Source: Haplodiscus bocki
Lineage: Eukaryota
DNA: 64,000 nt
Direction of reading: 5' to 3'
Assembly: GCA_965655095.1 (NCBI GenBank)
Contig: OZ296658.1
Span: 51,088,001 to 51,152,000 of the forward strand
Of the stretch, positions 17,509 to 64,000 are shown one piece after another. Position 1 is the first letter of the stretch. The number at the start of each line of letters is the position of its first letter. Below the pieces are notes generated by a model that was given only the letters and a program-made list of their open reading frames with translations, was not told the origin of the DNA and did no database searches. Made by a program: the position numbers and the translations under genes.

Positions 17509-18275
17509 GTTGAACTAAGCAAATTGATCAGTCTTTCATGTCCATTGATATCACTCGATCTTAAGTCTAAGTAGGAACCTCTGCAAACTTACTGCTTAAA
17601 TCAAATGTACCGATTGCGTAAATACTAATTCTAGAACGGAAGACCTTTCTTCTAAAACTTCACTTCCCTTAATCTTAGTCTTACAATGCTTTGTGGAACA
17701 TTCCACCCTGTAACGTTGGGTTAGCTCTTCAGCCTTTTTTTCTCATATTTTTATTACAAAGCGTTGGTTAACCTTCTTCCGTTAGAGAGTTTTTTCTTTT
17801 ATCCAGTCCGCCTTATCTGGGTCTGAAGATGTTTGTTTATTTGTTGTTGTTTTTTCATATCGATCTATTTTCAACATCGGGAAAATTTATTGTTGTTTGC
17901 TGTTTCTTATACGAAGCTGACAATTGTTCTACTTTATATTGATAACATCCGCAGTAACAGTAACAGCTGTTCCACAGTTCATTAGTTTCCACAAAAGAAT
18001 TGTAATGTTGTTTATTAGATAAGTTAAGAGATAGGATGTTTGTGCCGTCATCAGTTGACAACAATGTAATCGAAATTAATTGAGAACTTGATTGATTGCT
18101 AGCAGCTAGTGGCTTTCTCCGTTCGTGTTCTTTAAAGAGGAGGTATAGAGGTCGAGAATGTTGAAATGAGTTGTTTTTGTTAAATTTGATCATCTGTGGC
18201 TGCAGTTATAATATTTATTGCTACATATTTGTTGGATAAGTCAGTTTGGATTTGCTACACAGTTTAGTTCACACA
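17509..18275 (-). repeat. Gypsy LTR-A copy 1
   Basis: Minus strand: PPT gtgaaaaggagaat, start TG(TG)TGAACTAA, end TTAGTTCA(ac) (inverted termini), then PBS TGGTGCGACT. Confidence 0.85.
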
Positions 18276-21200: not shown

Positions 21201-21254
21201 TTAAATATTCGATAGTTGAATTTTAAGAAACAAAGCCAAATTAGGTATAAAATT

Positions 21255-22178
21255 TTATGTTGGTGTAACAACGTCCCCTGCGATATTTTGGGTGGTTTCA
21301 TTTGAAACACGAAGTTTGCTTGATGAATCTGTATTATTGGGAATGGTTGTATTAGAAGATGATTGATTTGGTGGAGTTGACTTTGGGTTTTCATAATTGC
21401 CCCTATTTTTTGGTGGATAGATTGTTCGTTTCAAAAAAAGTTTCTGCTGTTGAAGTGAATAAAACTGCAAAAAAATTATCTGTGAGCCAAAGATTTGAAT
21501 TAATTAAAGAGTAATTAATACATAAATTAGAATTGTTACTGCAAAATGAATAAAAAGTTACAATGCTTATTTCAAACCACATTTTGTTCCGATGTAATAG
21601 GGTCAACCAAAAGTATTGAATTGCATTGTTTTGAACCAGTCTTAATTTGAAAATAGTTTTAGTGTTAAAGTACTATCCGTTGATCCTATTCGCATTTGTA
21701 TTGTCCGATAGCATTGCCAAGAATCTTTTTTGTGGCCAGAATTTGGATTACCATCGTCTAAGAAATCATAGCTTGTTGTTTTACGAAGAACTAGACTTGT
21801 TTTGTCTGAATGCTGTGTCAACAGAAATGTATTCCCAGACTTTTTTATACGTTTAAGTGGATAAAGGCCTCCAGTATGCACAGAGAATGTGTTTGGTTGA
21901 ATTGTACTTCAAAAATCCGGAGGTTTAAAAAGAACTGGAGGTCTTGTTTTACTGGCATTGGTTTTGAAAGATAATAATCATTTCCATCAGGGTTTACTGC
22001 ATTGAAATTAGCTGGGTTACTATCACATGCGATTTCTTTTTCTAACGATTATGTTTGATGACTTACAGGATCTACAAAATAGTGTGTATCTTGACAAAGA
22101 AAGAGTATTTTGTCAAAGTATTTCTCCCTGTGAGTATAAGGCGGAGAAAGATAATGTTGGCATTCACATAACCGAAGC
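21255..22178 (-). pseudogene. env: env C-terminal part (class III fusogen-like), copy 1
   Basis: LRLCECQHYLSP..YFDKIL..YFVDPVSHQT..EIACDSNP..HTGGLYP..LLTQHSDKT, then hydrophobic TM-like segment and Ser/Thr-rich tail. Confidence 0.75.
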
Positions 22179-27102: not shown

Positions 27103-27585
27103 GTGGGAGGTTCAGAGATCATTGAAGGAAGCGTCCAAAAATCCTGTTTGTTGGAAAGATCCAAAAGACAACGTATATGATCTTGGCAGTTATTGCGCCT
27201 AACAGCGTGGTATCTGAGCATTGTTTTTCGGAAGAAACTTTGACAGTCAGGGTAATGGTTCGTACTAGAGTCGTATCCGCAAAGTTTTCTATCTTTGGTA
27301 ACCTGTAATAGTTTTTGCTTTAGCTCTGTTAGATAGATTAACACGTGCTTTATTATTGGCAGCACCATATGGATTTTCATTACAATCAACAACTCGATTT
27401 GGGCTAAAGTGTTGCAAATTAAGACGTCCTCTGCAGTCATAAAGACATACCAGTAGATTATTGATTTTGTCCTGGTGAATTGTTGCGGAAAAATCAGGAG
27501 GGTCGACGGCCCGAGGAGGTTGTGGATTCTTAGTAGAAGAGGGGCGAAGAGTCAAAAAGAAGATGGATAAAATAAATCTGAACAT
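27103..27585 (-). pseudogene. env: env N-terminal part, copy 1
   Basis: Signal peptide MFRFILSIFFLTLRPSST, then LYDCRGRLNLQHFSPNRVVDC..KARVNL..RAKAKTITGY. Confidence 0.75.
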
Positions 27586-27609
27586 GGGTTTTGGAAGGTA
27601 ACGATACGG

Positions 27610-28080
27610 TGTGCAGAACATCAACAGTGTCAAAGACAAACTTAAGTATCGAGCAAACAATGGAAGCACGAAAAGTTTTATAAGTAATTTCTGGACTAAA
27701 ATGGAATTGAATGGACACGCTTATGAAAAGCTGTAAACTCTTCGGCTTCATACAGCTCGTTTTAAGACGACTGTTTCTGAATATCATATATTTCAGTGTG
27801 TATTTGAGCTCAATTCCGCCCTGACTAACAATTTCATCAACACGACAAATTCGATGAACTGGAAAAAGAACAAACATACTTTGATCAATATTCGTACCCA
27901 ATACAATTGAAACGACAATAATAATCTTTCAAGATAACTTGAGACCTTGGGAAGAAAAACATTTCGCCGTTTGCGGGGTTGGAACTTCGGACACTGGAAT
28001 TTCAGTCGGACAATCTAGCTCTAGACCATCGGTCTTCGTAAAAGTTCATTTTTTTCTGTTACATATATTGCTTCGCAACA
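27610..28080 (-). repeat. BEL LTR type T (solo copy, ~470 bp)
   Basis: Starts TGTTGCG, ends TGCACA; flanked by CGGTAC / CCGTAT; homologous to 41311-41781. Confidence 0.6.
27965..28034 (-). ncRNA. tRNA-like Pol III unit in LTR-T (copy 1)
   Basis: A-box-like TGGTCTAGAGCTAG, B-box-like AGTTCCAACC, TTTTT 5 nt downstream. Confidence 0.55.
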
Positions 28081-35138: not shown

Positions 35139-35914
35139 TTTGAACTAAGCAAGTTGATCAGTCTTTCATCTCCATTGAAATCACTCGATCTTTAGTCTTA
35201 GTAGGAACCTCTACAAACTTATTGCTTAAATCAAATGTGCCGATTGCGTAAATACTAATTCCAGAACGGAAGAACTTTCTTCTAAAACTTCACTTCCCCT
35301 TAATGTTAGTCTCACAATGCTTTTTGGAACATTCCACGATGTAACGTTGGGTTAGCTCTTCAACCTTTCTTTCTCATATTACCATTACAAAGCGTTAAAG
35401 CGTTGGTTAACATTCCTCCGTTAGAGAGTTTTTTCCTTTATCCAGTCCGCCTTATCTGGGTCTGAATATGTTTGTTTCTTTGTTGTTGATTTTTCATGTA
35501 GGTATATATTCAACCTCGAGATAATTTAGTGTTGTTTGCTGTTTTTTATACGAAGCTGAGACTTGTTCTACTTTATTCATACTAACAGCAGTAACAGTAA
35601 TAGCTATTCCACAGTTCATTAGTTTCCACAAATGAATTGTGTTGTTGTTTATTAGAAAAGGTAAGAGATCGGATTTTAGTGCCGTCGTTCAGTTGACAAC
35701 AATGTAGTTAAAATTATTAGGAATTTGATTGGTTGCTAGCAGCCAGTGGCTTTCGCCGTTTGTGTTGTTTAAAGAAGAGGTATAGAGATCGAGAATGTTG
35801 AAATGAGTTGTTTATGTCGTAAATTTGATCATCTGTGGCTGCAATTATAAGATTTGTTGCTACATAGTTATTGGATAAGTCAGTTTGGATCTGATACACA
35901 GTTTAGATTTCACA
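35139..35914 (-). repeat. Gypsy LTR-A copy 2
   Basis: PPT gtggaaacgagaac, TGTGAAATCTAA start, TTAGTTCA end, PBS TGGTGCGACT. Confidence 0.85.
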
Positions 35915-38830: not shown

Positions 38831-38879
38831 TGAATAATCAATAGTTGAATTTTAAGAAACGAGGCCATTATAGGTATAA

Positions 38880-41286
38880 TATTTTATGTTGGAGTAACAA
38901 TTTCCCCTACGATATATTGGGTGGTTTCATTTGAAACACTAGGTTTGCTTCATGAATCTGTAATATTGGGGATGGTTGTATTAGAAGATGATTGATTCGG
39001 TGGAGTTGACTTTGGGTTTTCATCATTGCCCTTATTTTTTGGTGGATAGACTGTTCGTTTCAAAAAATTTTCTGCTGTTGATGTGAATAAAACTGCGAAA
39101 AAATTATCTGTGAGCCAAAAATTTGATTTATTTCATAGAGTATTTTTTACATAATTTAGAATTGTTACTGCAAAAAGAAGAAACTGATGCAAAGCATCTT
39201 TTAAAGCACATTTTGTTCCGAGGTAATAGGGTCAACCAAATGTGTTGAAATACATTGTTTTGAACCAGTTTCATTTAAAAATGTTTTTGAGGATAAATTA
39301 CTATCCGTTGATCCTATTCGCATTTGTTTTGTCCGATAGGATTGCCAAAAATCTTTTTTGTGGCCAGATTTTGGATTACTTTCGTCTAAGAAATCTTAGC
39401 TTGTTGTTTTACGAAAAAACTGACTTGTTTTGTCTGAATGCTGTGTCAACAGAATTGTATTCCCAAAATCTTTTATATGTTTAGGTGGGTAAAGGCCTCC
39501 AGTATGTGCAGAGAAAGTGCTTGGCTGAAGTGTACTTCGAAGATCTGAAGGTTTAAAATGAGTTGGAAGGTCCTGTTTTACTGGCATTGGTGTTGAAAAT
39601 TAATAACCATTTTCATCAGGGTTTACTGCATTGAAATTAGCTGGGTTACTATCACATGCGATTTCTATTTCTAACTATTATGATTGATGACTTACAGGAT
39701 CTACAGACTAGTGTGTATCCTGACAGTGAATTGGTTTTTTGACAAAGTATTTCTCCCTGTGAATATAAAAAGGAGAAATATAATGTTGGCTTTCACATAA
39801 CCGAAGCGAAACACATCGTTATGAAAAAATTATTTTTGTTTCCTGTTACTACCTCTCCTGCTGGAAAAAGTTTGGTTTCAGCTACGGAAAACAAACTCAA
39901 AATTTGAGTTCGTCAGATTCCACAAAGCTGGGTTAGTGTATTTCTTTCACTAATGGTCACGATCTCATATATATGGCTAACAATGTACTCAACTTTGGAA
40001 TTAAAATGTGCAGGTATGTCCAAGGCTTCAAATCTAATACTGGAGCTTCATCTATTTCTTCCTTCGCAAGATCATCGTTCGTTGATTTTTTCACTGCGGA
40101 TATCAACAGTAAAAAGAGCGGGTTCGCTGTCAAAAACTTCGTTCTTTTTCCAACTTATCGAGTTATTAACCACACGTGGGTGTTCTGGTAAATCTGTATG
40201 AAACTCAAAACCAATTGGATATCGGAAAAAGTTTTTTTCATACTGAGCTTCAAGTTATGGAGATTGTTGGTTGCAAAAAGACTTTATTTGTGGTAAAACT
40301 TCAAACCTTGTATTTGGGTCACCGGGAATTTTTTTGAAAAGTGAGTCGGCTGCGCCCAATTTTTCTTCATTTTGTCAATTTGATAAAGATTCTATCCAAT
40401 TTCGGTTCTGGCTTTGGTTAGTTCTGCTTCAATTTGATGAGGAAAATAAACAAAGTAATGGTCATTCTGAAACTAAAGTATTGATGCAGAAAAAAGGACA
40501 GTTTGTTGACAATATTCGTCTTTGTTTAGATGAGATATAGATCGGCCATTATAACCTATTTGGTTTTGTTTGTATTTTCGACTTTTTCCTTGTTAGAAAT
40601 ATTAACTTCCAACTAAAAATGATATTAAAAAGTTCATTCAGTTGGGATTTACAAAATTATTGTATTTTTGTGAATTATCTTTTGTCCATGTTTTTAACAT
40701 AGATTTAAGGTTTTACACCCAAACTCCATAGAAGTCTAGACCAAAGATTTTGCTGACATTTTGCTTTGAATAATAGGTATTAGTTCCGTTGATCGAAATC
40801 TATAAGAACAGCGATTGGTTAAGGAGGTTCGATAGTTTTGTTTTATCGTTTGTTGGGAAGATACAGAAGACAATCTAGATAATTTCGGCAGTCGCTGCGC
40901 CTAATAGCGTGGTATCTGAACATTGTTCTTCGGTAGAAACTTTGGCAGTCACGGTAATGGTTCGTGCTAGCGCCTTATCCGCAAAGATTCGTATTTTGGT
41001 ACCCTGTGATAGTTATTGCTTTAGCTCCGTTAAGCAGATTATCACGTGTTTTTTTTTGGCAGCATCGAATGGATTTTCACTACAATCAACAACTTGATTT
41101 GGGCTAAAATGGTGCAAAATAAAATTAGGACGTTCTCTACAGTGATAATGACATGCCACTAGATCGTTTGTTGTGGTGGATTTTCTCGGAAAAATCAGGA
41201 GGATAGTCGACACGAGGAGATAATGGATTCTTAGTAATAGAGAGCTGAAGAGTCAAAAAGAATATGGATAAAATCATTCTGAACAT
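38880..41286 (-). pseudogene. env: Full-length decayed env (~800 codons), class III fusion protein-like (gB/chuvirus G type)
   Basis: Signal peptide MFRMILSIFFLTLQLSIT; YHC..HFSPNQVVDC; TRFEVLP..FC; HFNSKVEYIVSHIY..ERNTLTQLC..RTQIL helix; GNKNNFF; VDPVSHQ..EIACDSNP; TM-like segment near 39.1-39.25 kb. Confidence 0.78.
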
Positions 41287-41310
41287 GGGTTTTAGAAAGT
41301 ATTGGTACCG

Positions 41311-41781: not shown

Positions 41782-41914
41782 TTCTCCGGGTTCAAAAAAT
41801 TGGCCAAGAGCAGAAATTTAACTGAACATCATTGCGTTTTTTTCAATTTTTCTAGAATCATATAAATAATCAGAGAATTTGCTTATATAGATTCAGAATT
41901 AACGTGGCAAAGGA

Positions 41915-44900
41915 TCAACGAAAAAAGTTTACGAGGGATCCGGGGGTGGTAAAACATGAGCGGGTTTTACAATTGAACGTATCAGATTTCCCGACAACGT
42001 TTTTATTTCTGGTTCTAGCAATGGCGTCACCAACGTAATTTAATTTGACAACACCTGCAAGCGTGTAGTATCCTCTTGGACCAGTAGCTTCAACAATCCA
42101 AACCAGATCGCCGGTTCTCAGGTCTTGGTCTATCGACGAAAACCAATTGGATCGGTGATTCAAAAGCGGGACGTACTCTCTGAACCATCGACTTCAGATC
42201 GTAACGTTTTCTGTGGTCAAAATCGCTACTCAGAGTTGATGGTAAACTTGAGCCGGATCTTCCTAGCAGGAAGTGGCTGGAGTCAAAACATCCAATTCAG
42301 TCGCATCAGCATTTGTTTGAATTAGTGGACGGGAGTTTCGAATTTGTTCAGCTAGACAGAATGTAGTCGTCAGAATCCCGTCGGTTGTGGGGTCCTTCCG
42401 CCACAAAAAACCGAGAGACGGTCGGTCGTTTGGAATTGCTTTTTTTTGAAAAAAACTTTCCCTCGATGTCAGCAGAAACTGCATACGAGTACCTGTGGTG
42501 ACGGAATAGCAGACGAATAAGGTTTTGCAACAGGTGACGCCCCTGTTAGAAGTGCACTGGTGAGCGGATGGCCATGAAATTCAGCTGTGCCGTTGAGGAC
42601 TCGTCGTAATTCGCCGGGTTTGTGCGGGTGATACACAAGGTGATGTGGTAAACACCCTTCACGGGGTTGGTCGATCTTAAAATAAACGCAATTTTTGACT
42701 GCGACGATATAACTATTTGAAAGATTGTCAGTTTTGGTCGTAGAATACTGCTCTTCTAAATTCGGATCTTTCCGAAGACAGCGTTCAAGGGACTTGAGCT
42801 GAATTAATTCCGAAATATAGTTGTTCGACATTATATTTTTTGTGATTAGCTCAAAGCACACCAACGTGATATCGGGATCTATCGTGGTATGTAGTTTCTT
42901 GGAGGGTCTTCTGTGCTCGCGCATGCGCTGCGGAGCACACGTCGACTTCTTTTTAAGACCCGCATTACTCGATGTCATACCAAGTACGGATTTCGGCAAC
43001 TACATTTGAATTGGATTCTCTTTGAGTAACAGCCTTGAAGCTTGTCGGTAGTAGAACAGACGTCGAGGGTATTGGACTAATCAATACCTACCCCAACAGT
43101 AAACGGACGGCTAATGGAGTATTGTTTCGGTGGTATCAAAATACTCAATGGGCGGATAGAGAGGAACATATCCTGACCAAGAATCATTTCGACATCTCCA
43201 TGACTTTACTTTTCCAAAGAAATTGGTTATATTTGCCGATATTGGACTTGTAGTGAATCGAAATCAATTACTTCGGTTCCAACGTTCAAGTCTTTTCTCA
43301 CATACGGCTTGGCCTTAAAAGACGGGCAAGAGCTACCCGAAAGAACCGGTGTCAACTTCAACTGGACAAGTTGTGTGTCAATGGTTTGATGTGGTTTATT
43401 TCCGTGAACTGTGTGTATCAAAACTGTGCCTTGCACATTCAATTTTTTCAACCAAATTCTGGGAAGAATACGAGGTATTGCATGCAGAATTACAGGGGAC
43501 AAGGACTTTTTGAATTGGGAAGGATGATTGCAAAAGGACCTCAGTAATTTGCAATAGTCCGTTAACATTCGCCTTGAAGACATGCCGGGGCTCTCATCTG
43601 TTTTGTTCTGTACATCTGTTACAATGCCTACCGTAATTTCCTCAGTTTAGTCAGTTCTTTGCCGTTTTTTGTCGAAAAGTTCTTTCGGAGCCATGGAGCA
43701 AGGTATTATGACTGTTTGAGCAGCCTTGCTTGAAAAGCGTGCACGATTTTGGGCATTTGCGGAAAGAATGTGGCCTAATCAAGCATCGAAAACAAGGGTT
43801 GTTGTCTGCAACTAATTTCGTCCGTTGGGTAGTCGTCTTTCCAAGGAACACCGGACAACGCCACAAGGGTTGCTTTTCTTTACAAGCAGTACAATTAGTG
43901 GTCGAATGTCCGCTTTGTCTCCCATTGATGTTGTTTGATTGGAGCTGGCTGACGCAAATTTTTTGGTTCCGGTCTTCATTCTGATAACAATAGCAGATGG
44001 GTTGCTGTCTTCGGTTTTCGGTTTTTCTCAGTACAATTTATTTCTCTCATGTGCCTCTGCTTTGTTCTTCAACCAAACCTCGAATTTGAGTGTTGTCGGA
44101 CGATTTCAGTTCTTCTTCACGATATGCATTGATTGAGATCCTTTCAGCTTTGGTGGAATTTTTCTGTGTCGCTTGGCCCAAAAGTGATGCACTCGGGAGA
44201 TAAGGATGGTGGTGCAATGACCGAAAAACTCCTCTTAAAGCAGTAATTGTCGCCGAATAACTGATGAAACTTCCATTCATATGCCTTTTCAGTGGTGGAA
44301 GTTTGCTGAGTTTGTACATTTAAGCACTCACCACTGACTGTGGCTGCCCGAGTTCCGTTCTAATGTCTTCATTGCGCCCTTGTACGAAGTTCCGCAGTGA
44401 GGAAATTCTGCAATCGACGTCTTTGCCTGGCCAGTCACTAGAGTCTTTGATTACATCAATTTAACACCGTCCGTTAGTGGAGCTGAGTGAAGGGCACTCT
44501 TAAACTGGCCTAGCCATTTGAGCCCTTGTAAAGGATCTCCGCTATTTTGCGCCAGTTTCCACTGCGGTCAATAGTCTTTTCTTGAGGACGCCAGCAGTTG
44601 AGCTCAATCTTGTACCCTGAAAGCAGTAGGTTCCGTTCAAGGCAATAGACCCAGCGGGTACAACTTCGGGTCCTCCAACTGTCATCGGAGCTGTTAAAAC
44701 AACGATGTTTGGTATAGCACTTCCTACAAAGTTCGGTCCTGAGGATGAATTCAATTGGTAAACACTGCCACCACCTGTTACAGGAACCACTTGTAGAACT
44801 GTAGCGTTGTTGTCACTATCCGTTTTTGGTGCTCTTGAAAAGTTTGCGGAGTTGACTATGATATGGCAACATTTGGCTGTGAAGATCCGGTCGTTGGAAA

Positions 44901-45993
44901 TTTCCATGCTGAAAGTTTTGGCAAAACTTGGTTGGCTAGCACGGTAAAACTTGAGTTTGGTTTCGAATTGACTATCTTTTGTTGAGCTCAATGACTCAGA
45001 ATCAAGCTTTGTTGGTTCTAATTGAGGTTGAGTGGCATGCGATTGAACGCAGTATTGGGCCTTGTTTTATGATGACTGAAACGGATTTGTCCTATCTTGA
45101 ACAAAAACGGAAGTCGGAGTAATTTCAGTCGCATCGTTGGAAGGAATCCCCATTAGAAGCACTCCAACTGATACAAAACATGGACTTGGTTGCAATCTGT
45201 CTGCATCTTTCTGTTTCTACAGTAGAGTCTTGCACCTTAGTAAGTTGATTTTTGACATCGGTTGACGCGTTAGTAACCCATTTATTTATTCTTATAAATT
45301 TTACACTTTGACTGTGCGCAATAAGTTCGGACAAAGCATCTGGCAGGATTTGGCTGGTTTTCGAGACATCTTCGATTAGTTCTAAATCAGTCAATGTTGC
45401 TTCCACCAGTCTCCTTGTTTTATCTTCTTCCAGTTCAACAAGCATCAACGCTTGTTCTTTTTTCATTCTCTCCTCTTTCTGCTTGAGCCACTGAAGGTCA
45501 ACTTCTTGGTTCTGCTGAACCAGACGCATTATACCTACGTTCTGTTTGTCCTTTTCTCGCGTCGGTGTATTGCAATGAAAGGTTCCTGCTCTCACCGGCT
45601 AGATGTCTTAGAAATTCCAGATGTGGAGGTTTTGAAGTCTGAGAAGCAGACTTGGCTTTCTGATCGGTTTTGACGGAAGACTGAGAAGTTTTATGCGTTT
45701 TAGGAAGGCCATCGATATACTCACGAGCTTTTTTAAAAACTTTGTCGTTGTCCAGAGTCACGTCGCTCGGCCAGCTTTTCAATGCTTCGGGATCTGTAGT
45801 TTTATTTGCGAAAGAGTACAATTGGTCGTCTTTACTAAATGATTTCGTCATTGCCCTTTCGCACGATTTAACCAAACGTTCAACTCTTACATTCTTTCCT
45901 GCGTTATCTACAGCTTCCATTATTTTTGCTGGTACCTTTTCAACTCCGCCTCCACTTTCGCACGAATTTCATAAAGTTTTTTCAGGTTTTCAT
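41915..45993 (-). pseudogene. BEL/Pao polyprotein with internal deletion (gag, protease, RT N-half fused to IN C-terminus)
   Basis: DUF1759 gag; WRCPVF..CFRCL..HSFRKC..C..HNTLLH; RT LPHHLVYHPHKPGELRRVLNG, YAVSADIEG, FLWRKDP; DUF5641-type LRTGDLVWIVE..PRGYY. Confidence 0.9.
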
Positions 45994-48900
45994 GTTGTAA
46001 AACAGGCATCGCCAAATTAGGCTTCGGTTTTCCTACGTTTAAGGGATATTTCTAGGCTAATTGAAGGTGGCAAAACAAATAAAAGACAGGAAGTTCTTTT
46101 ATTTTTTGTATTTTGAAAAGTAGTTACGAACTACAAAGGGGTTTATGAAGACCGGGTTACGTAAACAGAAATTTTCTAAGGCTTTAGACTTCACCCAGTC
46201 AGCGGAGTCTGGACAATATCGCTAAGGTGAACAAAAAGTAGGGGGATATGACCTTTGAGGTATCAACTTGACAATGAAGTCTGGCCGCAATCGTGAAAAA
46301 GTGTTTGAAGCTGTTGAGAAATTAACCATTCAATGAAGTGTGGACGCAACTCCAGCAGCTGAAAAAAGGAGGGGGTTTACGAAAGGGAAAAAGTGACGTT
46401 CGTTTACTTTTGAGCGTTTCGTGTACGCTTATTAGGTCTTTTCGGTCGGATTTCAGAAGTAATTGAAGAGAGATCACTTTTTTCTTCTAAAAAAATCTAT
46501 GTTCATCATTTCAATCTCAAGTCTATGGTGTAACGTTCGCAACTGGTTCAAAAGATTGGGACTAATTTGCTTTCTTACGGAGAAAAATCATTTAAAATGC
46601 TGAACTCTTGAATAAAAAAGCCTAATTGCGTTTCTTGCAGTGAATCAAATATATCGGGCGTACGGCCACGCTGGCAATACACAAGAGCACTGAGCTTGTC
46701 CTGAAGAGTTTGCAAAATATTTATCAGATTCGGTACTGATAATGGTCGGTAATTTTTACTTTTTTTTCTACAAATGCTTTTATTCAGCACATCGTGCCTA
46801 ACAGCAACCTAGGTTTTACCTTTCAGATCCTTCAAAAATAAATTTTGCACAAAGTTTCTCGGTCTTATCGCTTAGGCTTAGGACTTAGGCCCGGGATAGC
46901 GTAAACTTTTTACTTCTACTTTGATTGTTGTTCAGAGCTCAATGCGTATGTCGCAAGATGAAAAGAACTTTAAGAAATTGTCAACGATTTTCATTTGAAA
47001 ACGTGTTTTTTTAAAGAAAAATTGGGGGCTTTAGAGTAAACAACCGGATACTGGGAATATATCACAGGCTGTGAAAACAAAAATGCAAAATTTTCGGAAA
47101 GATTTTCGAAAAAATTTTTACAAGTCTTGAACTCGAAAGTATAAAATTTGAGATATCAAAGGTTTAAAACTCAAGTTTAATCAAACCGGAACCGGTATTA
47201 CTCTCGTTCTTTCAGTTCCTCACGTGCTTGAGATAGTTCGAGATATTGCTCGTCTACACAGGTGAGGTGTTGGACAATCCACAGTTTCATTCGCTTCATC
47301 AACCGAATTGTGATCTTCATCTACCAAAAGTTTTTTCAGGTTTTCATGTTGTGAAGCAGGCAACGCCAAATTAGGCGTCGGTTTTCCTACGTTTTAAGGG
47401 ATATTTCTAGGCTAATTGAAGGTGGCAAAACAAATAAAAGATGGGAAATCCTTTTATTCTTTGTATTTTGAAAAGTAGTTACGAACTACAAAGGGGTTTA
47501 TGAAGACCGGGTTACGTAAACAGAAATTTTCTGAGGCCTTAGGACTAAGCCCAGTCAGCGGAGTCTGGACAATATCACTAAGGTGAACAAAAGTTAGGGT
47601 GATATGACCTTTGAGGTATCAACTTGACAATGAAGTCTGGACGCAATTGTGAAAAAGTGTTTGAAGCTGTTTAGAAATCAACCATCCAATGAAGTGTGGA
47701 CGCAACTCCAGCAGCTGAAAAAACGAGGGGGTTTACGAAAGGGAAAAAGTGACGTTCGTTTTCTTTTGAGCTTTTCGTGTACGCTTATTAGGTCTTTTCG
47801 GTCGGCTTTTAGCAGTAATTGAGGAGAGATCACTTTTTTCTTCTGAAAAAAATCTATGTTCATCAATTCAATCTCAAGTCTATGGTGTAATGTTCTCAAC
47901 GGGTTCAAAAGATTGGGACTAATTTGCTTTCTTACGGAGAAAAATCATTGGAAATGCTGAACTCTTGAATAAAAAAGCTTATTTGCGTTTCTTGGAGTGA
48001 ATCAAATATATCAGGCGTACGGCCACGCTGGCAATACACAAGAGCACTGAGCTTGTCCTGAGGAGTTTGCAAAATATTTATCAGATTCGGTACTGATAAT
48101 GGTCGGTAATTATTACTTTTTTTTCTACAAATGCTTTTATTCAGCACATCGTGCCAAACAACAACCTAGGTTTTATCTTTCAGATCTTTCAAAAAAAATT
48201 TGCACAAATTTTCTCGGTCTTATCGCTTACGGTTTAGGACTTAGGCCCGGGATAGCGTAAACTTTTTACTTCTACTTTGATTGTTGTTCAGAGCTCAATG
48301 CGTATGTCGCAAGATGGATAGAACTTTAAGAAATTGTCAACGATTTTCATTTGAAAACGTGTTTTTTTAAAGAAAAATTCGGGGCTTTAGAGTAAACAAC
48401 CGGATACTAGGAATAGATAACAGGCTGTGAAAACACAAATGCAAAATTTTCGGAAAGATTTTCGAAAAAATTTTTACAAGTCTTGAACTCGAAAAAATAA
48501 AATTTGAGACATCAAAGGTTTAAAACTCAAGTTTAATCAAACCGGAACCGGTATTAATCTCGTTCTTTCGGTTCCTCACGTGCTTGAGATAGTTTGAGAT
48601 ATTGCTCGTCTACACAGGTGAGGTGTTGGACAATCTACAGTTTAATTTGCTTCATCAACCGAATTGTGATCTTCATCTAACAAAAGTTCTTTCAGGTTTT
48701 CATGTTGTGAAGCAGGCAACACCAACTTACGCGTCGGTTTCCCTACGTTTTAAGGGATATTTCTAGGCTAATTGAAGGTGGCAAAACAAAAAAAAATGGG
48801 AAGTTCTTTTATTCTTTGTATTTTGAAAAGTAGTTACGAACTACAAAGGGGTTTATGAAGACCGGGTTACGTAAACAGAAATTTTCTAAGGCTTTAGACT

Positions 48901-50025
48901 TCACCCAGTCAGCGGAGTCTGGACAATATCGCTAAGGTGAACAAAAAGTAGGGGGATATGACCTTTGAGGTATCAACTTGACAATGAAGTCTGGCCGCAA
49001 TCGTGAAAAAGTGTTTGAAGCTGTTGAGAAATTAACCATTCAATGAAATGTGGACGCAACTCCAGCAGCTGAAAAAAGGAGGGGGTTTACGAAAGTGAAA
49101 AACTGACGTTCGTTCTCTTTTGAGCGTTTCTTGTACGCTTATTAGGTCGTTTCGGTCGGCTTTTAGCAGTAATTGAGGAGAGATCATTTTTTTCTGCGAA
49201 ATAAAATCTATGTTCTTTTATTCAATCTCAAGTCTCTGGTGTAATGCTCTCAACTGGTTCAAAAGATTGTGACTAGTTTGCTTTCTTACGGAGAAAAATC
49301 ATTTAAAATGCTGAACTCTTGAATAAAAATGCTTTTTTTCCGTTTTTTGGAGTGAATCAAATATATCAGGCGTACGGCCTCGCTGGCAAAACACAAGAGC
49401 ATTGAGCTTGTTCTGAAGAGTTTGCAAAACATTTATCAGATTCAGTACTGATAATGGTCGGTAATTATTACTTTTTTTCTACAAATGTTTTTATTCAGCA
49501 CATCGTGCCAAACAACAACCTAGGTTTTACCTTTCAGATCTTTCAAAAACAAATTTTCCACAAATTTTCTCGGATTTATCGCTTACGGTTTAGGACTTAG
49601 GCCCGGTATAGCGTAAACTTTTTACTTCTACTTTGATTGTTGTTCAGAGCTCAACGCGTATGTCGCAAGATGAATAGAACTTCAAAAATTTTCAACCATT
49701 TTCATGCGAAAACGTGTCTTTTTTTTGAAAATTTGGGGCTTTAGAGTAAACAACGGGATACTGGGAAAGTATCACAGGTTGTGAAAACAACAGTGCAATC
49801 TTTTCGGAAAGATTTTTTAAAAAGTTTTATCAAGTCTTGCTCTCAAAAATATAAAATTTGAGATGTCAAAGATTTAACGTTCAAGTTTAATCAAACCGGA
49901 ACCGGTATTACTCTCGTTGTTTCGGTTCTTCAAGTGCTTGAAATAGTTCGATACATTGCTCGTCTACACATGTGAGGTGTTGAACAATCCACAGTTTCAT
50001 TCGCTTCATCTACCGAATTGTGAGT
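45975..50025. repeat. Three tandem ~1355-bp units, each LTR-S with SGNH-like ORF plus short flanks
   Basis: LTR starts (cgtctaca on +) end at 47258, 48614 and 49968; ORF ATGs at 46994, 48350 and 49705. Confidence 0.92.
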
Positions 50026-50164
50026 AAGGCTGGACAATTGATCCATATTTACGGATATGTTATTTGCAGTCATGTTTCGGTGTCCGTCATTATACATCTG
50101 ATTAGCCTTATTGTCAGCTAATTGATTCATTTCGGGTGAACGAGGCATGCTACCCACCATGTCA

Positions 50165-50480: not shown

Positions 50481-53400
50481 TTAAGTCCGGTTGTCTGGGA
50501 TTAGACTTCCTTTAGTCTTGCTGGCAGGGCTCAGACTGAGTGAGCGGTTTATATTAAAAATGCCATTTGATTCTAGTTCTTCAAACAATTCAGTAGCAGC
50601 ATTATTTTGATAGGAAAAGAATTGTACTATGTCGTTTTGGGATATTTTGATGTGCAGGTTGAAGTTAGGAGGCGGAGTAGAGACGGAAACCATGAACAAT
50701 TTGTTCAACACAGGGAAAAGATTTTTCGTAAATCTCAACCGAGGAACTTGTGGAGTTAAGATGGTTATCTATAGGCCTTACTTGAGAAAAAGGCGAAAAG
50801 TTTGAGGGTAATATTAAATTTACGGTTTGAATTACTTTCGGGAGTAGATGTTGATCGAGACCTAATTGGAGTCGGAGTACATATGGTGATGATTGAACAA
50901 TTGCTTGAGAGTTTGTGGGTTGAGTTAAAACTTCAGGTAAAAGATTTCTTGGAGGGCCTGATATAGGAAAGGAGCTCCAAGTTATATGACTTAATGCACC
51001 GGTGTTTTTTGAAATCATCATCAGATAGAGTGATTGCATCATCTGAAAGAATAATAGTATCGTTAAAATGGCTACCCTGGAGTAGGTCTGGGAGGATTCA
51101 AGTTCGAGGATTCTTTTGGTTTGCATTTGATGATGAATGTTCGGTAGAACGAATTTAAACTGTACCTTACTTTGAGAGAGAGTAGTTTGGGAAAGAGTCT
51201 TTTCTCTTCATGTTACAGAGTGTCCAAATTTAGAAGAAAAAGAATAGTTCTGATTTTAAATTTCAACTTTGTTTAGTGACTGAGTATAAATTTTTATTTA
51301 GTACTTTATTCACGGCAAAGTTGAACAAAAGTAGTTATCGGGAAAAATTTCGAAGTTGAAAAACGAATTGATTTTAAGCTTGTTAACAAAAAAGTGATTT
51401 TTTAAAGATTATAAAGACAATTACGAATTCTTTTCGAGGTGCTCTCTGATTGGTCATCATGTTGTTGAGTTTTGTGAAATTTTTCGTGCCAGGCTTAGAT
51501 CTCTTCCTCCGATTCGTTTGTTTCAAACGTCTTGACAATTTAATGTCTTTTGATTCCGTTTTGATGACGTTAAAATACGTTTTAGCTCTTTTTAAACCAT
51601 AATTTTCTTACATGTGATCCAAATGAACTTTCCAGAACGGAATATTTTTTCCAAAATATTTGAGGGGCTGCCTACGGAGACTGATTCTGAGTCTTCACTG
51701 GGAGAATGTTGTATTTACGAAAAATGCGGCGTCAAATTGAGACACTGGTGTTAATAGTCCGTCTGATTGAAGGTTTTAATTTGACTGTTTGGTAGATTTC
51801 GGGAAGATATGGTGTCAAGTGGAGACCTTGGCTGTATATGTTTGGCTAATTGAGGAATTTTTGTTTGATTACCTGGCTCTCTTGGGAATCGTCCTGAATT
51901 TTCAAATGATAATGGAGACAAAGGTCGGCATCGAGATGGGTGAGCAAGTTGTCAAATAAACTGGGATCCCGTGAGGTGTCCCCGTCCGAAATATCTATAG
52001 ATGCACACGGGGAACTGGCGCGTGACTGTATCTTCTCTGATGGTTTATATGGAGAAATGGTGATAAAAGGCTTAAATGAGACATTTCAAAACTTTCGAAA
52101 TAATTTGTCTAATTACTTACTGAGAAGGTAAAAAGTGATTAGCCGATTTGTGTTAGCTTATAAAACATTTGCTTGAATAGACATTCTTTCGTAAATTACA
52201 TCAGTTAATTTTCTCACAGGAATATTGGGTTCTTTTAAAGTTTGAAATTTTTCAGATTTTTTCGAGGTTTTTGTAATTTCTGTGTGAAACAAAGGTGCAT
52301 TCTTTTAATTTATATGCCTTGCCAGTTCTGTTGTTTCTTGCAGATTTTGACAGTAGTCTCTCTTTAAATGTCAAATTTTGACAAAAAAAGAAATCAAAAA
52401 ATTGATTTTGCCATTTAGATTGTATATGAAAACAATGGTTTCGATATAAGTGATTGAATTACTCTGATCCGATCTGTTAATTTTCTATGCGAGTGGATTA
52501 GTATATATCTGCAAAATGAGCTATTTCAGATATAACTTTGCTTTTGAGTATATTCTGAAGGAAATTCCATTGGCACTCGAGGTATGTCTTTGAATACCTT
52601 TTCATATGGGGAAAACTGAGTGAGAATTTGGGTATTATGAGCAGAGTTAAAAAACTGCGCTTGGTCTCACCAATGGATATTAACTTGCTGTGTGGTAGTT
52701 GGACTAAATCATCCAAGGTGCGAACTAAGCTAATCCAGCTCTCAACTACGCCATTCCCCCAGAAAAGTGAGGGTATCTCGGACGATATTTAAAGACCAAG
52801 AAACTGCCCCGATTTGCAATTGTAGTTGGAATTTTACTGCTACTTTGTCAGTGACTATATTTTTCCGTGGGCCGAAAAAAAATTCGACTGGTTTAGTAAA
52901 ACATCTGCTGCGTCATTTAGTTGATTTGGCTTGGTAACGACAAAATGTGTGAGTGCATCGAGAATGGCAAGTTTGAAGAATTTCACTCTGATGCATGGTG
53001 CATAGGAGCTTTGTTTTCCATGCTGATACGCTAAATAAAACCTCCACAATTTTCAACAAATTCAAGCTGCGGAGCGGTGTTGATATCCATTCCAAAAGCT
53101 TCTTTAGTTTGACAGGATAGACAATTTTTTTAATTGAAGATCAATCCATTTTCGTAGCCCGTGAAAATTAAAACGAGTTTGAAGTCATTACAAGTGCCTT
53201 TCTGATCATAATGGCCGGGAATTTCAACCAGTGTTCTTTAAAAATTGCCGCATAGTATTTTTATCGGTAAGCAAGATTGTCTTTCGCCAATGGATGAGAC
53301 TAAAGTTCCCAATAAAATGTCTTTTAGAGAAGATCCGAATTTTAACCATCTGATAAAAGGCGATATCGTTCAGAAAATGATTTGGAGCTTTATTTCCTTT

Positions 53401-56400
53401 GACTGTCGGAGTTTTTTTGGTAGGTATTGTAGTGGATGGCTCCGTGAACCAATTTCTTACAATCTTCACAGCAAATTCAATTTTTTGATGTTGGAGAAGG
53501 ACTGCATTATCGAGTTTAGTATTTTTTGGTGCAAAAAAGTCATGATTTTGTTTGGATCCATGTCAAAGATGATAGTCAGAAGAGATTTCTGAAGTGTCTT
53601 CAATTCAAGTGAAAAACTGCTGAGTTTTGGTCGAGATAAATTTTTTGCGATTCTACTTTCCGGTTGGTGTTTGGTAGTTTTCTCGAGTTCCAACCGTAAG
53701 AAGTTGAATTCTTCTCGAGTTGCAATTCTTTCCTTAAATACCTCGTCATCGTCACCATGAATATCAGAATCAATTAAGAAGGCCCAGGACGCGTCAAGTG
53801 AATTTTTTTTCAATTGCTTCATAGAGATAGAGCTGTTTTCAAGAACAATTAAATATTGAGGTCTTCAAGTGGAGTGCTGTTATATGTAAGTGGTGTGATG
53901 TTCTTTAAAGCCATTATCAAACATTTGAACAAATAACTTATCTCCGTCATTCTCACAAAAAATTTGATAAGAGTTGTTTAAGTCTTGAAATGTAATTGGT
54001 TCAACATTTTTTTTAAAATTGAGTTTGGTTAAAGATGGCTAAATGCTTGGAAGCGGCGGTATGAAACTCAATGGATTTTGAAAATGTTTTTAGAACTTCT
54101 TGTTGCTTCTTGACAAACTTTGTTGAAAATTTCCGCTTAAGTAGTCAGCCCAGCAATGTGTTTGTCCTTGTGTCATAAAAAGTTTTGGAAACCGTGTGAG
54201 AGCAATTTGGCATCTGAGTAATCGGAGGTTTTTGTTGCTTATAAGGAAGAGAGGCTAAGAATTGTTTTTCGTTCCGTGAATGTTTCAACGGTGCGTCTGG
54301 AGCCAAATGTCGAAAAAAACACAAACGTTTAATTCATGAACAATGGCAGTTTTTTCACATTTGATAACATCATTTTTTTGTTCACTTCCTGCGAAAACAC
54401 GTAAAACATAGAAAATGACTTGTATTTTTCCTCTGCAATCCGCTTGGATAAGTACTGTGGCTACTCTGGTCGCAGAAGTATCAACCATAATCAAAAAGGA
54501 TTGCTTTTATTTTGTAGTGTCAAGTCATATTTTTGTCCTCATTTTCTTTCACTTGGAAGAAAACAGCTTCTTGTTTTCTCTATCAAAAAGGAGACATTAT
54601 CTTTTAAAGGTGTATACAATGCAACAAGTTCTACATGCAAGTTCAGAATAATTCTGAATATCAATTTCAAGCTCCCAACAATTTCATAGCACTTTTTTAG
54701 GATCAGGAAGTTTCTTTTGTTGGAATTCCATTATTTTGTCTGAAAGTAGTCTGCTTCAATTTTTGTTGATAACCAGGCCGAAAAAACTAACGGTAGTAAG
54801 GAAAAAATACGTTTTATCTTGAGGGGTTTCAAATATATGTTTCCCTACTGTTTCCTGAAAATAAGGTAGTCGATCAAACTTTTGTTTTTAAATATCAGCT
54901 CGACCCAATAAGTAATCGGTTCGTAAGATAGTTTCATCCTTTCTGAGGAGCGGTGAAAATAGAAATCTCATTACGCCGACGAAAAAAATCACGTGAAGCG
55001 TTCAATCCATGAAATTTTTGTTGGTATTGTATGTTATCAACCGAATTTGAACAACTCTTTGAGTTTCTGGTGTTAAGGCAACTTGGTGGTATGAAGTGGT
55101 AAAGTTGATTGTACTGACTATTAGCGTCGTTTCGTGGTACCAAATTTTCAACTGGTAGTAACATGAACTGGTATTGCGATACATCAGTTATTGCATTAGG
55201 TAGTCTGGCATCGCTAACGACTTTGCATATGTCACTTTTTGGAAGAAATATATTGGAGTCAAAAAATTCAGAACCAAATTCATTATTTCCTGCAGCATCA
55301 AGATCAAATAATTCAATAATTCCATTCGTTTCTTTTTAGTGGTGAAACTTTTCTACTTTATCAAAGTAGGGTATTGGGATTTTTGTGATGCGTTGATTTT
55401 TTAAATCTGCATTTGTTTGGATTGTAAAATGAAATGATACGTCAAGGACACTAAAGTCTTCCTCAGTTGTGAGTACACACCTTGAAATTCACAAAGAAGT
55501 TATATAAGGTTAATTAATTCTCGGGGTGAGAGTTGTCCGGGTTAAAATTTAGTTTGCGGAGGATTGTATGATATTTAGGGTCAAGTTTTTGGATAAGTGT
55601 AGTAAAGGTAGAGGATTTTTTAAAGTGATGTAACTGAGTTCGTGAAGTGCAGAATCGAAAGGTTGTGTGGTAATGGATGCATAGTCGGTATGCACGTCGA
55701 AGGTGTCTGGACAATTTATATATATTAAAGTTTAATTTGCTTGATTAAGATTGTAAACTGTTTATGGCCGAGAATATGGCTTTGTAACATTGCATTCTCA
55801 TTGGAAATCAATTTATTCTAAATATTCTTTGGGTATAGCAATCGGAAATTTTGTTTTGCTTTCTAGAAAAACATTGAAGCGTTAGGCTTTTGGAAAAGGG
55901 TCATACATTTCGGTAAAACTCAATTGATGGTAGTACTTTCAGAGAAATGGAAAGAATGAATGCATATTGTTAGATTAGTAGTTTGAGGTTTGTTTTTTAT
56001 TTGCAGTGGAAACGTAAAAAGACGTATGTCGTTACCGGGAAGATTGATGTGTTTTTTGACAGTTAGGTTCTAAACATTAATTAGAACAAAGGTTGTTCAT
56101 GAGATATATGAAGAAATGGGTTGTTGTTTAGATTTGCCGTATTATGTAGAATATTTTCCATGTTAGTTTGAGCGTGTTAAGTGTCAATTGACTTGCATTT
56201 TGTTTGTAAGACTGGGAGGCCAAAAATAATAATTTTTGTTCCAGCAATTGCGAAGTTAATGGCTAGTGCTGTTGAAAGATCTCAGAAAAGCAAAATGGTG
56301 GAGTCAACATTCCTTTTATTGAAAAAAACTGAAAATTTGCTAATCGTAGTTTTGTTTCCCAGTAAGTTTCATATTCGTATTTGAATTGTTTTATAGGAAT

Positions 56401-59240
56401 GTTAATTTCATTCCAGGTAGGAGAATTCAAGATACTAATAGTGGCTTTAGTGCCGGGTAAAGACTCTACTCCAAGGAAGTTTGGTTCTGATTTTTGAGTT
56501 GGTTTCTTCACGGACACCTTAGGAGGTTTAAACCAACTTGAACCAATTCTAGTAATGCCATCTGAAATTTTCTTTTCTTTCTAATATTCCCACTTCAGAA
56601 AAAATTCAGTAATCACAAAGAGCTTGCAAAACATCGTCGAGATTGTTTGTATTTTGACGAAACACTGGTGATTGGTTTATCGGATGAAAATGACTATGTG
56701 AAGTAACCCGATCAGGAGTAACTGATTTGGAACTAATTCTAAGAATACGAGAATAGATTTCATTGTAATAACGGTTTGGAGAAGAAGATCTAGTGTTATT
56801 ATTGATCCTCCCGTTTGTTTTTTGACGGTCATATTTGTCATATGAAGGATAATTTCTGTCTGGATGAGCGAAGTCTAACAAGAGATTGGGATTGGTCGCG
56901 ACAATTTGACTCATGAGGAGAGAGGTAGATTTTTGGAGCTCGCTTGTTAGGTAAATCCTGGTTGTTCCTGAAAAACTCCTTAAACTATTTCTGAGTCCCA
57001 GATTGAAGAGGTTGGTGCTCGTTTTGTTCCAAGGATTCGAAATTTACCACTAAATAATGATTTTATTTCACTATTGAAACATCTAGAAATATTGCGACAA
57101 TTCTTCGACGAACGTTACAATAAATCAATTTTTGAGGAGATTCTTTATTATTGGCGTAATGTCAGTGGCGAGCTTGTTGTCATGATTTATGTTCGAGAAA
57201 AAGTGGGTCGATTCATGATAGTTCACTTCCTGTCATGGTTTAGGCGTCATTTCATCAGCAATGTGTTTTCGGTTGATATAGTTTCTGAGAATTTCAAAAG
57301 AGATTATAGGTTCTTGGAGAGTTTGTTAATGGTCTTCTCTCTTATCGTAGATAAAACCCTTCACTTTTAACGGGAGTCCTTGAATGACAATTTTGACATC
57401 TTCTCGGTTGCGCTTTTCAGAATTATTTTCTGCCAAGCCTTTCTTAAGGTCTCCATCACGGGAAACAATAATTGGAAAAATTATTGTGTGTTTAACTGTG
57501 CATTTTGTGCTCCGAATCTGGTTTTTTATGTTGCTGTAAAACTATCGAATTGTTTAGGAAATCTAAACGTGAAGATAGACCAGTCTTGCGTATCAACTTC
57601 GGAAAAACTTCAGGGCCATCCGTAAAAACGTCAACAATGGCCATTCCACGTACGTGCCAAACATGCTTCTGGTCTGGGCTAGTCGGTTCAGGACCAGATT
57701 GGTGAAATGTACGGGTTTTCGTACGATAAAGGAACTGCTCTGGTTGGTATCTATGGTCTGTGCCATCAAAAATCTGAAGTTGGCTAGAAAGTGGAGCACA
57801 TATAGGCTCATTTAGAGTATATGTTTGAAGAGATGGTACAGGCAAATGAGTTTGAACAGGTAGATTAGAAGTTCTAGATAATGGAGGTTGATTGACCATC
57901 CAAGGAAAAAGAGTATGATTTGGGGGTTTGAGGGTATGGTCCGTTTATGTGGTGAAGGATACATGGTATTTAATTGCGGAATTGTATAATGTTGAGATGA
58001 CTTAATATGAGATGGTTTTGTAAAATTTGCAATGAGTGAATCAGTAGGGCTAGAAAATTTTCATCGACTGATCGGTATGAACTGTGAATTTAGAAGAATA
58101 ACAACATTGGAAGGTTTAATTGTCAGTGTTTTTTATTGGATTGGTTGTTTAAAAGTGCTATTTTGAGTTTGATGAGTTTGTAATTGTGTTTGAGGTATCA
58201 TTTTAGCTAAACGTAGTCCAACAGAGGTATGTGAAAACAAAGGTGTAAGTGGTCGCGGACAAAAACTAGTTTTATCAAGTGCAGTTAAATGTGCTGGAGG
58301 GGATTGACGTAGGTTCTGGTGTGGTGTCGAAGGATCAGTTCGTTTATTATAGAAGGTATTCTCGATTTGATTTGGACTTTTAGGGGTTGGTTGTGTTGCC
58401 TGCAATGTAGTTGGTCAAATTAGAGCGAGATCTGGATCTGCAGAGAACAAGGTTCCTAGACATCAATCCATTTCTTGTCTTTTATAGAGAGTTGAAACTT
58501 TAATTTTAGAAAATGGAATAAGCGGAAGGATATTTCTACTATTTTGTAAATCAAAAACTTCATGAATTGGTTCCAATAATGTTAAACAATTCAATAAGAT
58601 TGTCTTGTTTTTGACCGACACTTGAACTTTGTTGTGGGAACTGTGCATATGCAGTATCTGTTTTGTTGGTGGTTTGAAGGAGAAGGCTTGATTGAAGTTG
58701 ATCAAATACTTGAACTATCTCTTGCCTAAAAAATTGGTTCGAAGGTGTGTTCTTTGGTTTTATCATAACTAAATTTGAGTGTCGTTGCACATTGTTTTGA
58801 ATATTCTGGAATTGATTAAATTTTTGGTGATATAAGGCAAAAACATAAAGATCTGAAAGAGTTTCTAGATGGTGTAAGGTTTAGATCTTTACAGGTAGTT
58901 TTATATAAGGAAAATCGTGGTTTTTAGCATTTAATAATTGAAGTACAAAATGAGGTTAGTTTACTACCATGAGAAAGAAAATTTTATGTAGATTTGAATC
59001 ATGGCGGTAGAGGTGAAGGTTGATTATGCTGTTTAACCGTATATGGAGACATCTGTTACCTAAACAAAGAAAATCAGTGAGGGAGAATGACAGAAAGTAC
59101 ACAATTCTGAATATTCGGTGCGAGGATTGAGGACGACGCGATTGTACCGAAAATGGTACGTTTGCCTAAATTTGAAGCGAGGTTTTGGTAATAGAGGTAA
59201 TTTTGAAAACACCTTAAAAGGACTTGAAATCAAAAGTCGC
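50481..59240 (-). pseudogene. pol: Gypsy leader, gag and pol, apparently undeleted but decayed
   Basis: gag LQIFDGTDHRYQPEQFL (57492-57899); R/S/N-rich nucleocapsid region (56606-56914); PR ~56450; RT YHQVALTPETQR (55002-55184); RH IMVDTSATRVA (54285-54494); IN ILDALTHFVVTKP (52855-53049). Confidence 0.88.
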
Positions 59241-59244: not shown

Positions 59245-60019
59245 CTTGAACTAAGCAAGTTGATCAGTCTTTCATGTCCATTGATATCACTCGATCTTAA
59301 AGCTACGTCTTAGTTCGAACCTCTACAATCTTACTGCATAAATCAAATGTGCCGATTGTGTAAATACTAATTTTACAACGGAAGACATTTCTTCTAAAAC
59401 GCCACTTCCTCTTAATCTTAGTCTTACAATGCTTTGTGGAACATTCCACACTGTTACGTTGGGTTAGCTCTTCAACCTTTCTTTCTCACATTGTCATTAC
59501 ACAACGTTGGATAACATTCCTCCGTTAGATAGTTTATTCTTTTATCCAGTCCATCATATCTGGGTCTGAAGATGTTTATTTCTTTGTTGTTGTTTTTTCA
59601 TGTCGATCTATATTCAACATCGAGATATTTTTTTGCTGTTTGCTGTTTCTTATACGAAGCTGAGAATTGTCCTACTTTATTCATACCATCAGCAGTAACA
59701 GTAATAGCTATTCCACAGTTCATTAGTTTCCACAATTGAATTGTATTGTTGTTTATTGGAAGAAGTAAGAGATCGGATGTTTGTGCCGTCGTTCAGTTGA
59801 CAACAATGTACTTAAAAGTATTTAGGAATTGGATTGGTTGCTAGCAGCCAGTGGCTTTCTCTGTTCATGTTCTTTAAAGAGGAGGTATCGAGATCGGGAA
59901 TGTTGAAATGAGTTGTTTTTGTCAGAAATTTGATCATGTGTGGCTGCAGTTATACTATTTATTGCTACATAGTTATTGGATAAGTCACTTTGGAATTGAT
60001 ACACAGATTAGTTTGCACA
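59245..60019 (-). repeat. Gypsy LTR-A copy 3
   Basis: PPT gtggaaacgagaat, TGTGCAAACTAA start, TTAGTTCA end, PBS TGGTGCGACT. Confidence 0.85.
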
Positions 60020-62984: not shown

Positions 62985-64000
62985 ATATTTTATGTTGGAG
63001 TAACAACCACCCTACGATATATTGGGTGGTTTCATTTGAAACACTAGGTTTGCTTGTTGAATGTGTATTAATGGGAATGGTTGTATTAGAAGATGATTGA
63101 TTTGGTGGTGTTGACTTTGGGTTTTCATCATTGCCCTTATTTTTTGGTGGATAGACTGTTCGCTTCAAAAAAGTTTCTGCTGTTGATGTGAAAAAATCTG
63201 CAAAAAAATTATCTGTGAGCCAAGAATTTGATATAAATTTAGAGTAATTAATACAAAATTTAGAATTTTTACTGCAAAAAGAAGAAACTGATGGAATGTA
63301 TATTTTAAACCACACTTTGTTCCGATGTAATAGGGTCAACCAAAAGTGTTGAATTGCCTTGTTTTGAACCAGTTTCTTTTAAAAATGTTTTTAGTGTTAA
63401 AGTACTATCCGTTGGTCCCATTCGCTTTTGTTTTGTCCGATAGGATTGCCAAGAATATTTTTGTGGCCAGAGTTTGGATTACTTTCGTCTAAGAAATCTT
63501 AGCTTGTTGTTTTACGAAAAAATTGACTTGTTTTGTCTGAATGCTGTGTCAACAGAATTGTATTCCCAAAATCTTTTATATGTTTAGGTGGGTAAAGGCC
63601 TCCAGTATGTGCAGAGAAAGTGCTTGGCTGAAGTGTACTTGGAAGATCTGAAGGTTTAAAGTGAGTTGGAAGGTCTTGTTTTACTGGCATTGGTGTTGAA
63701 AGTTAATAATCTTTTTCATCAGGGTTTACTGCATTGAAATTAGCTGGGTTACTATCACATGCGATTTTTATTTCTAACGATTATCATTGATGACTTACGG
63801 GAACTACAGAATAGTGTGTATCTTGACAGTGAATTGGTGTTTTTCCAAAGTCTTTCTCCCTGTGAGTATAAAACAGAGAAAGATAATGTTGGCATTCACA
63901 TAACCGAAGCGAAACACCTTCGTTATGAAAAAAATTACTTTTGTTTCCTCTGGGTACCTCTCCTGCCAAAAAAAGTTTGGTTTCAGCTACGGAAAATAAA
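62985..64000 (-). pseudogene. env: env C-terminal part, copy 3 (runs off window)
   Basis: AGEVPRGNKSNFFHNEGVSLRLCECQHYLS..TPIHCQDTHYSVVPVSHQ; HTGGLYP; TM-like segment. Confidence 0.75.

Follow-up and report, generated by a model that had tools for sequence, protein, structure and literature searches.

The window analysed here, a stretch of 64,000 nucleotides at C11:51088001-51152000 of Haplodiscus bocki, contains a segment that resembles the gene of a class III viral fusion glycoprotein and lies among remnants of Ty3/Gypsy and BEL/Pao retroelements, which raises the questions of whether it is still a gene, to which element it belongs, and where it came from. A preliminary description regarded it as an envelope (env) gene captured independently by a Ty3/Gypsy element, as a new kind of lineage. 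Very probably, the segment is the pseudogenised env of an old Ty3/Gypsy element of about 15.5 kb, with a predicted class III (chuvirus-G/gB-like) fusion protein as its product, and forms part of a head-to-tail array likely amplified after the death of the element. The following features are distinguished.

38870..41289, minus strand: env pseudogene, class III, PF24664 family, with its Met at 41286
62986..64000, minus strand, running on to 65529 outside the window: 3' part of env from the next array unit, 92% identical, with 13 of 19 stops in common
27146..27717, minus strand: older duplicate of the env 5' end with its flank, about 80% identical, directly 3' of Gypsy pol and spacer
21252..22178, minus strand: 3' part of env from another array unit, its 5' part deleted
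59246..59553, minus strand: LTR of about 308 bp, TG...CA type, common to two array units and followed by the PBS-like TGGTGCGAC
35140..35448, minus strand: LTR 3' of the main env of the window
17510..17809, minus strand: LTR of the third unit
57047..58609, minus strand, second copy at 15592-16637: decayed 5' part of gag, to which young gag proteins align in dispersed copies
52300..57046, minus strand, second copy at 30048-34823: end of Gypsy gag and pol (RT, RNase H at about 54189-54581, integrase), decayed; PF17917, PF17919
50327..52299, minus strand, second copy at 28091-30047: pol-env spacer, its 3' part a former family ORF of about 295 codons
35449..38879, minus strand: 3.4 kb between env and 3' LTR, with a former family ORF of about 590 codons; remnants at 36580-37194, 18925-20259 and 60670-61170
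41800..50023, minus strand, second copy at 22180-26635: nested BEL/Pao fragment, foreign to the Gypsy element, with DUF5641 at 41918-42193

The window copy of env makes no protein. No ORF of at least 120 aa lies inside 38880-41230, the minus-strand frames of 38800-41400 contain 40, 39 and 61 stops, and the reading phase of the family is interrupted by 19 stops and 17 frameshifting indels. In an alignment of the window copy with 16 dispersed copies and two array neighbours, its mismatches are distributed evenly over the codon positions (0.215/0.21/0.247), and the copy decays neutrally. The frame of about 800 codons in the preliminary description thus does not exist in the window copy but holds for the family, in which env is represented by a frame of 827 codons. 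The three further env pieces that had been recognised in the window (27146-27717, 21252-22178 and 62986-64000) are real.

The motifs that had been listed for the segment also exist, but as a composite of several copies. The window copy itself retains a hydrophobic N-terminus (residues 1-13, by hydropathy) and the motifs YHC, SVDPV, LCGI*RTQIL (the asterisk marking a stop inside the motif) and EIAC. YDC (at 27441) and FVDPV (at 22078) belong to other env pieces of the window, and FDKIP is absent from all four window pieces and was seen in dispersed copies of the family.

The window pieces of env fall short of the Pfam cut-off (E 0.056; 0/3 pieces). All three dispersed env pieces exceed the 27-bit cut-off of PF24664, the Monjiviricetes fusion glycoprotein (71.9, 36 and 29.4); the four window pieces are all picked up, in order, by a profile built from 30 intact relatives. 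Closest among the intact relatives is P0124 (901 aa, from a cluster of 1,758 members), which is not present in intact form in this genome; it aligns with positions 40326-39369 (E 6e-40) and with the other env pieces of the window, at an identity of about 36% to the window pieces and of 53% to one dispersed piece. Hydropathy alone assigns it two hydrophobic segments resembling a signal peptide and a transmembrane segment (residues 27-45 and 715-733).

A sequence search of the PDB with the env profile yielded no matches. The structural model of P0124 (pLDDT 61.4, pTM 0.42) matches herpes gB in all PDB entries listed (best E 2.8e-12); among viral structures, the glycoproteins G of chu-like, xinmo-like and other negative-strand viruses score best (E 1.5e-29). 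With an independent aligner, gB, rhabdovirus G and thogotovirus GP make up 11 of the top 12 matches (best Z 9.2), and domain IV reaches a Z of 8.8 at an rmsd of 3.7. The TM-scores to gB are low (0.22-0.35) because only a monomer was modelled, with middling confidence. The PF24664 matches and the predicted structure of P0124 support an assignment of env to the chuvirus-G/gB class III family, in agreement with the preliminary description. As a prediction made on a relative, P0124, and not on the window copy, the class is well supported, the structural details are not.

The preliminary description placed env downstream of a Gypsy pol. In the window, the adjoining pol is that of the BEL/Pao fragment (41800-50023), and Gypsy pol follows only beyond it, at 52300-57046. 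Since the end of the BEL pol (41918-42193) lies about 630 bp before the start of env on the same strand, env might be owned by the BEL/Pao element, as in the chuvirus captures of mosquito BEL elements or in Tas. The dispersed copies of the family make this reading extremely improbable. At the DNA level, a search of the 1.5 Gb assembly in which 40 of 138 candidates were scored gave at least 46 matches; at the protein level, 110 were obtained. At 18 dispersed sites picked from these match lists, Gypsy pol and spacer precede env in 17, and neither blastn nor tblastx detected BEL/Pao at any of the 18. Moreover, the 5' flank of env is Gypsy spacer, which recurs after Gypsy pol at 27146-28080. For the family, the position of env behind Gypsy pol is therefore as first described.

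The surroundings of the dispersed sites also define the element. An LTR follows env at 16 of the 18 sites, which places env between integrase and the 3' LTR, and both LTRs are present at 12; several of the missing ends are truncated or lie beyond the sequence examined. Nine of the 12 copies with both LTRs span 14.9-15.9 kb, as expected for the 15-16 kb Ty3/Gypsy element of the preliminary description. The family layout, about 15.5 kb in total, consists of an LTR (about 308 bp), the PBS-like TGGTGCGAC, a leader, gag-pol, a 2 kb spacer, env, a 3.4 kb tail and an LTR. Of nine target duplications of 4 bp, four are exact and another four have one mismatch. The PBS-like TGGTGCGAC is found also in most young families of env-bearing elements in this genome; a primer tRNA for it was not found. 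The order RT, RNase H and integrase in pol follows from alignment with young pols, and Gypsy-type RNase H domains occur in both pol copies of the window. Pfam detected no protease in the window frames and gave weak matches in young relatives.

Three frames of the family are free of shared stops, namely env (827 codons), a frame of 295 codons just before it and one of 591 codons after it, which means that the length of about 800 codons is true of the family and that it possessed two further genes. These counts are based on the share of copies with a stop in each column of three regional alignments, with 14 copies per region and RT and integrase outside them; for env, the criterion was that no stop is common to half of 14-16 copies. 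The ORF of about 295 codons matches no Pfam family in four copies. That of about 590 codons has no Pfam family (best E 0.006, to single members of coiled-coil type), no match in the PDB, no homologue in the databases and no counterpart in young elements; its model is poor (pLDDT 44.5), with a helical C-terminus.

In an active element, the env product would have been a type I membrane glycoprotein of the secretory pathway, presumably a trimer, which may have allowed gag-pol particles to pass from cell to cell, and probably from soma to germ line, by analogy with the errantiviruses of Drosophila. All 19 aligned env copies of the family are broken, with 2-23 stops and 4-17 frameshifts each, the protein matches longer than about 250 residues all contain stops, and open env frames occur only in other families. 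The mean identity of the dispersed LTR pairs is 85.7% (10 pairs), which indicates that the family is old.

The array in which the window copy resides begins at 15592 and runs head to tail up to a gap near 88158 (in window numbering, past the end of the window). Its units are 85-94% identical and set apart by single LTRs at 82329, 59553, 35448 and 17809. Each unit contains a BEL/Pao fragment with a version of the env 5' end on either side, the two being about 80% identical to each other; deletions are specific to individual units. Array and dispersed copies are 70-71% identical, dispersed copies among each other 79%. The array units have 10-13 env stops in common, compared with a mean of 0.4 among dispersed copies, suggesting that amplification took place after inactivation. 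Unequal recombination between LTRs would be a likely route to such an array.

Several other structures were observed in and around the array. A 1,355-bp part of the 5' end of the BEL/Pao fragment (45973-50023), perhaps LTR plus leader, is present three times in this unit and once in each of the other two. An insert of about 360 bp in the pol-env spacer (41419-41800, 50163-50327), partly SINE-like by eye, occurs in all array units and at no dispersed site. The Gypsy and BEL pieces of 15592-64000 all lie on the minus strand, which accounts for the steady positive GC skew of this region; the one-strand layout recalls piRNA clusters and is explained equally well by tandem duplication. Outside the array, tandem repeats of about 880 bp extend as an array from about -9250 to position 1577, and an inverted repeat at 10955-11172 has 99-nt arms that are 87% complementary and a 20-nt loop. 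The window contains neither tRNA genes nor long simple tandem repeats. Elsewhere in the genome, a family copy at C8:88.30-88.33 Mb (L075-L078) has its internal 6.5 kb, from integrase to env, in triplicate, with 95% identity.

Local amplification, as in the window and of the pol-env part at C8:88.3 Mb, could also be expected of a fusogen domesticated by the host, and env could likewise be a free-standing endogenous viral element of a chuvirus. Both are very improbable, because every one of the 19 aligned copies is broken, decay is flat over the codon positions, and env is always found within an LTR element; no single-copy open orthologue at a conserved locus is present among the 110 protein matches. 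The evidence favours a dead gene of the Gypsy element.

The origin of env in this element had been attributed to an independent capture, on the premise that the env genes of Gypsy elements are class I. This premise has been outdated by the discovery of gB-type envs in Gypsy elements (PMC13524379). Chary & Hayashi (eLife 2026; PMC13524379) found that gB-type env in Ty3/gypsy is about as common as the F-type, occurs in many phyla and is widespread and ancient, which leaves an independent capture unsupported; they argue for ancient inheritance with rare exchange. In this genome, the window env is homologous to the envs of at least four other Gypsy families. The combined evidence fits one old env stock common to several Gypsy lineages. 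The env of the window family would then have been inherited from an ancient env-bearing Gypsy stock, an "errantivirus" of the HSV/gB type, rather than newly captured.

The alternative, that a Gypsy lineage took up its class III gene separately, with a chuvirus-like virus or, through recombination, another retroelement as the donor, is unlikely, although several observations are in its favour. In a tree calculated from 221 columns of the conserved C-terminal ectodomain, with one virus-like row among its 29 rows, the window and family pieces cluster with P0124 (100/100) on a long branch of their own, while the deep branches are without resolution. The RT-RNase H of the family is just 33-36% identical to that of the young env-bearing families, a value deflated by decay (the young families are 60-91% identical among themselves), so env may have been exchanged between Gypsy lineages. 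Furthermore, chu-like G proteins are the best viral structural matches of P0124, and the domain I motif C-G-x-H-S-H, present in young envs here and in errantivirus envs of insects and flatworms, is not recognisable in P0124. By contrast, 22 other proteins, including five Gypsy envs from this genome, show 27-39% identity to a family env piece, and the virus-like row shows 16%, so that the identity of the family env to other retroelement envs is over double its identity to the sole virus-like homologue found. With P0066 as query, 68 relatives reached E 2e-42 or better, compared with a single virus-like protein at 8e-11. Inheritance from an old Gypsy stock is the preferred reading, and the window copy is a dead member of an already described kind of Gypsy element.

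The other env-bearing families of the genome include young ones. When the genome was searched with another intact env, 63 matches were obtained, and 37 of the 55 near-full-length ones are without a stop. At the young sites, LTR pairs are 96.8-100% identical in 9 of 10 cases, and pol mostly contains stops or shifts. These young relatives are Gypsy elements by their domains, with Ty3 as the best solved relative of one young pol, and have ORFs after env. One young lineage of 18-20 kb has LTRs of 1.9-3.0 kb that are 99.7% identical (L112:1316-7839, L113:911-4737, C1:95.07 Mb; also L102/L103, L142, L145-L160); close homologues of it are abundant in ENA assemblies. Between protease and RT, it encodes a macrodomain similar to TARG1/C6orf130 (E 1.7e-23; Pfam Macro is below the cut-off). 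TARG1-like domains are also known from polyproteins of fish retrotransposons.

After env, the 18-20 kb lineage has an ORF of 202 aa, followed by one of 308 aa with a coiled coil and a TRAF/MATH domain (PF21355, E 1.6e-17; TRAF1, E 1e-13). The TRAF ORF has at least 128 matches in the genome and stands behind env and the 202-aa ORF in all 16 dispersed matches sampled. Its diverged copies differ mostly at third positions (e.g. 36/22/66; 9 of 16 were comparable), and the TRAF/MATH gene behind env appears to be under purifying selection. At C4:103.37-103.40 Mb (L161-L163), a unit of 1.8 kb is repeated in tandem and consists of the TRAF ORF, the 202-aa ORF and, in opposite orientation, a scrap of pol; env is lacking, several of the TRAF frames are open, and the array may represent a retroelement gene amplified by the host. 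Two other young env families have an ORF of 516 aa (L099:3549-5099) or 267 aa (L105:3292-4095) with a coiled-coil-like part after env; neither ORF matches a Pfam family, and the atlas scores of the 516-aa ORF (at most 0.84) gave no lead. Neither TRAF nor macrodomain was found in the window family, as the young accessory ORFs have no tblastn match in the window or at nine dispersed sites.

It is conceivable, if rather doubtful, that the window family is the fossil of a still-living Gypsy lineage of 12-20 kb that resembles a "complex retrovirus". Such elements would combine a class III fusogen with accessory genes (a coiled-coil TRAF/MATH protein without RING and an ADP-ribose hydrolase of the TARG1 type) that might damp TNF/Toll-type signalling and ADP-ribosylation of the host during cell-to-cell spread, and the two extra ORFs of the dead family would be further accessory genes. 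If the accessory genes do modulate immunity, convergence on complex retroviruses could be tested in these elements.

By itself, the window copy adds one more dead family to a kind of element that was described in 2026 as widespread, and it extends the range of gB-type Gypsy env if the phylum of the host lies outside the sampling of PMC13524379. The mitochondrial COX1 translates sensibly with table 5, which speaks against cnidarians, ctenophores, tunicates, echinoderms and rhabditophoran flatworms as the host, provided that the contig in question belongs to the host. The main value of the window copy is as a pointer to young env-bearing Gypsy families, one lineage of which has a TRAF/MATH gene and a macrodomain.

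Class III envelopes have been associated also with another group of retroelements. In Ascaris, the BEL/Pao element Tas has a gB-like env, and BEL/Pao elements of mosquitoes with a chuvirus glycoprotein were reportedly described by Dezordi et al. in 2020. The glycoprotein family (PF24664/gB-like) is the same, but the carrier is BEL/Pao in those cases and Gypsy here. The gB-type Gypsy envs were found with the chuvirus-like glycoprotein of mosquito BEL as bait, and this glycoprotein also adjoins gypsy pol in 114 elements (PMC13524379).

The closest counterparts of the window family are the errantiviruses of the HSV/gB type, in which, likewise, a gB/chuvirus-like env with signal peptide, ectodomain and TM stands behind a Gypsy pol, and LTRs enclose both (PMC13524379). 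A furin site is not required in these elements, and none is present in P0124 or in two young envs of this genome; the motif C-G-x-H-S-H is common to their insect and flatworm envs and the young envs found here (PMC13524379). How gB-type errantiviruses enter cells without the partners gD/gH/gL was stated as open (PMC13524379). Whereas the elements of that study are intact, the window family is dead, and it had further ORFs on both sides of env as well as a 3.4 kb tail; the published screen limits regions to 10 kb and pol-env gaps to 0.5-1 kb (PMC13524379). The terms "accessory", "macro" and "TRAF" are absent from the text of PMC13524379, and a literature search, mostly without full texts, found no paper on a single element that combines a gB-type env with both TRAF and a macrodomain.

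Extra genes and envelopes are combined also in other invertebrate retroelements. LTR elements of rotifers have extra ORFs too, but their env is, in the portion of the source consulted, paramyxovirus F-like (PMC5408684). Like the window family, Tor of Oikopleura is an invertebrate Gypsy element with env as a third ORF; according to the part of that account available to us, Tor Env is a demonstrated membrane glycoprotein, which some classes express from an internal promoter in a long pol-env spacer (PMC4402516). For the TRAF gene, Burro of planarians offers the young lineage a precedent; the accessible part of its description presents it as a large Gypsy element with env homology and MATH/TRAF-C, the latter forming an accessory ORF in one species (PMC6431247). 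Going by the same part, Burro differs in its size (>30 kb), in having env in frame between gag and pol, and in the location of TRAF upstream of or inside the polyprotein, not after env (PMC6431247).
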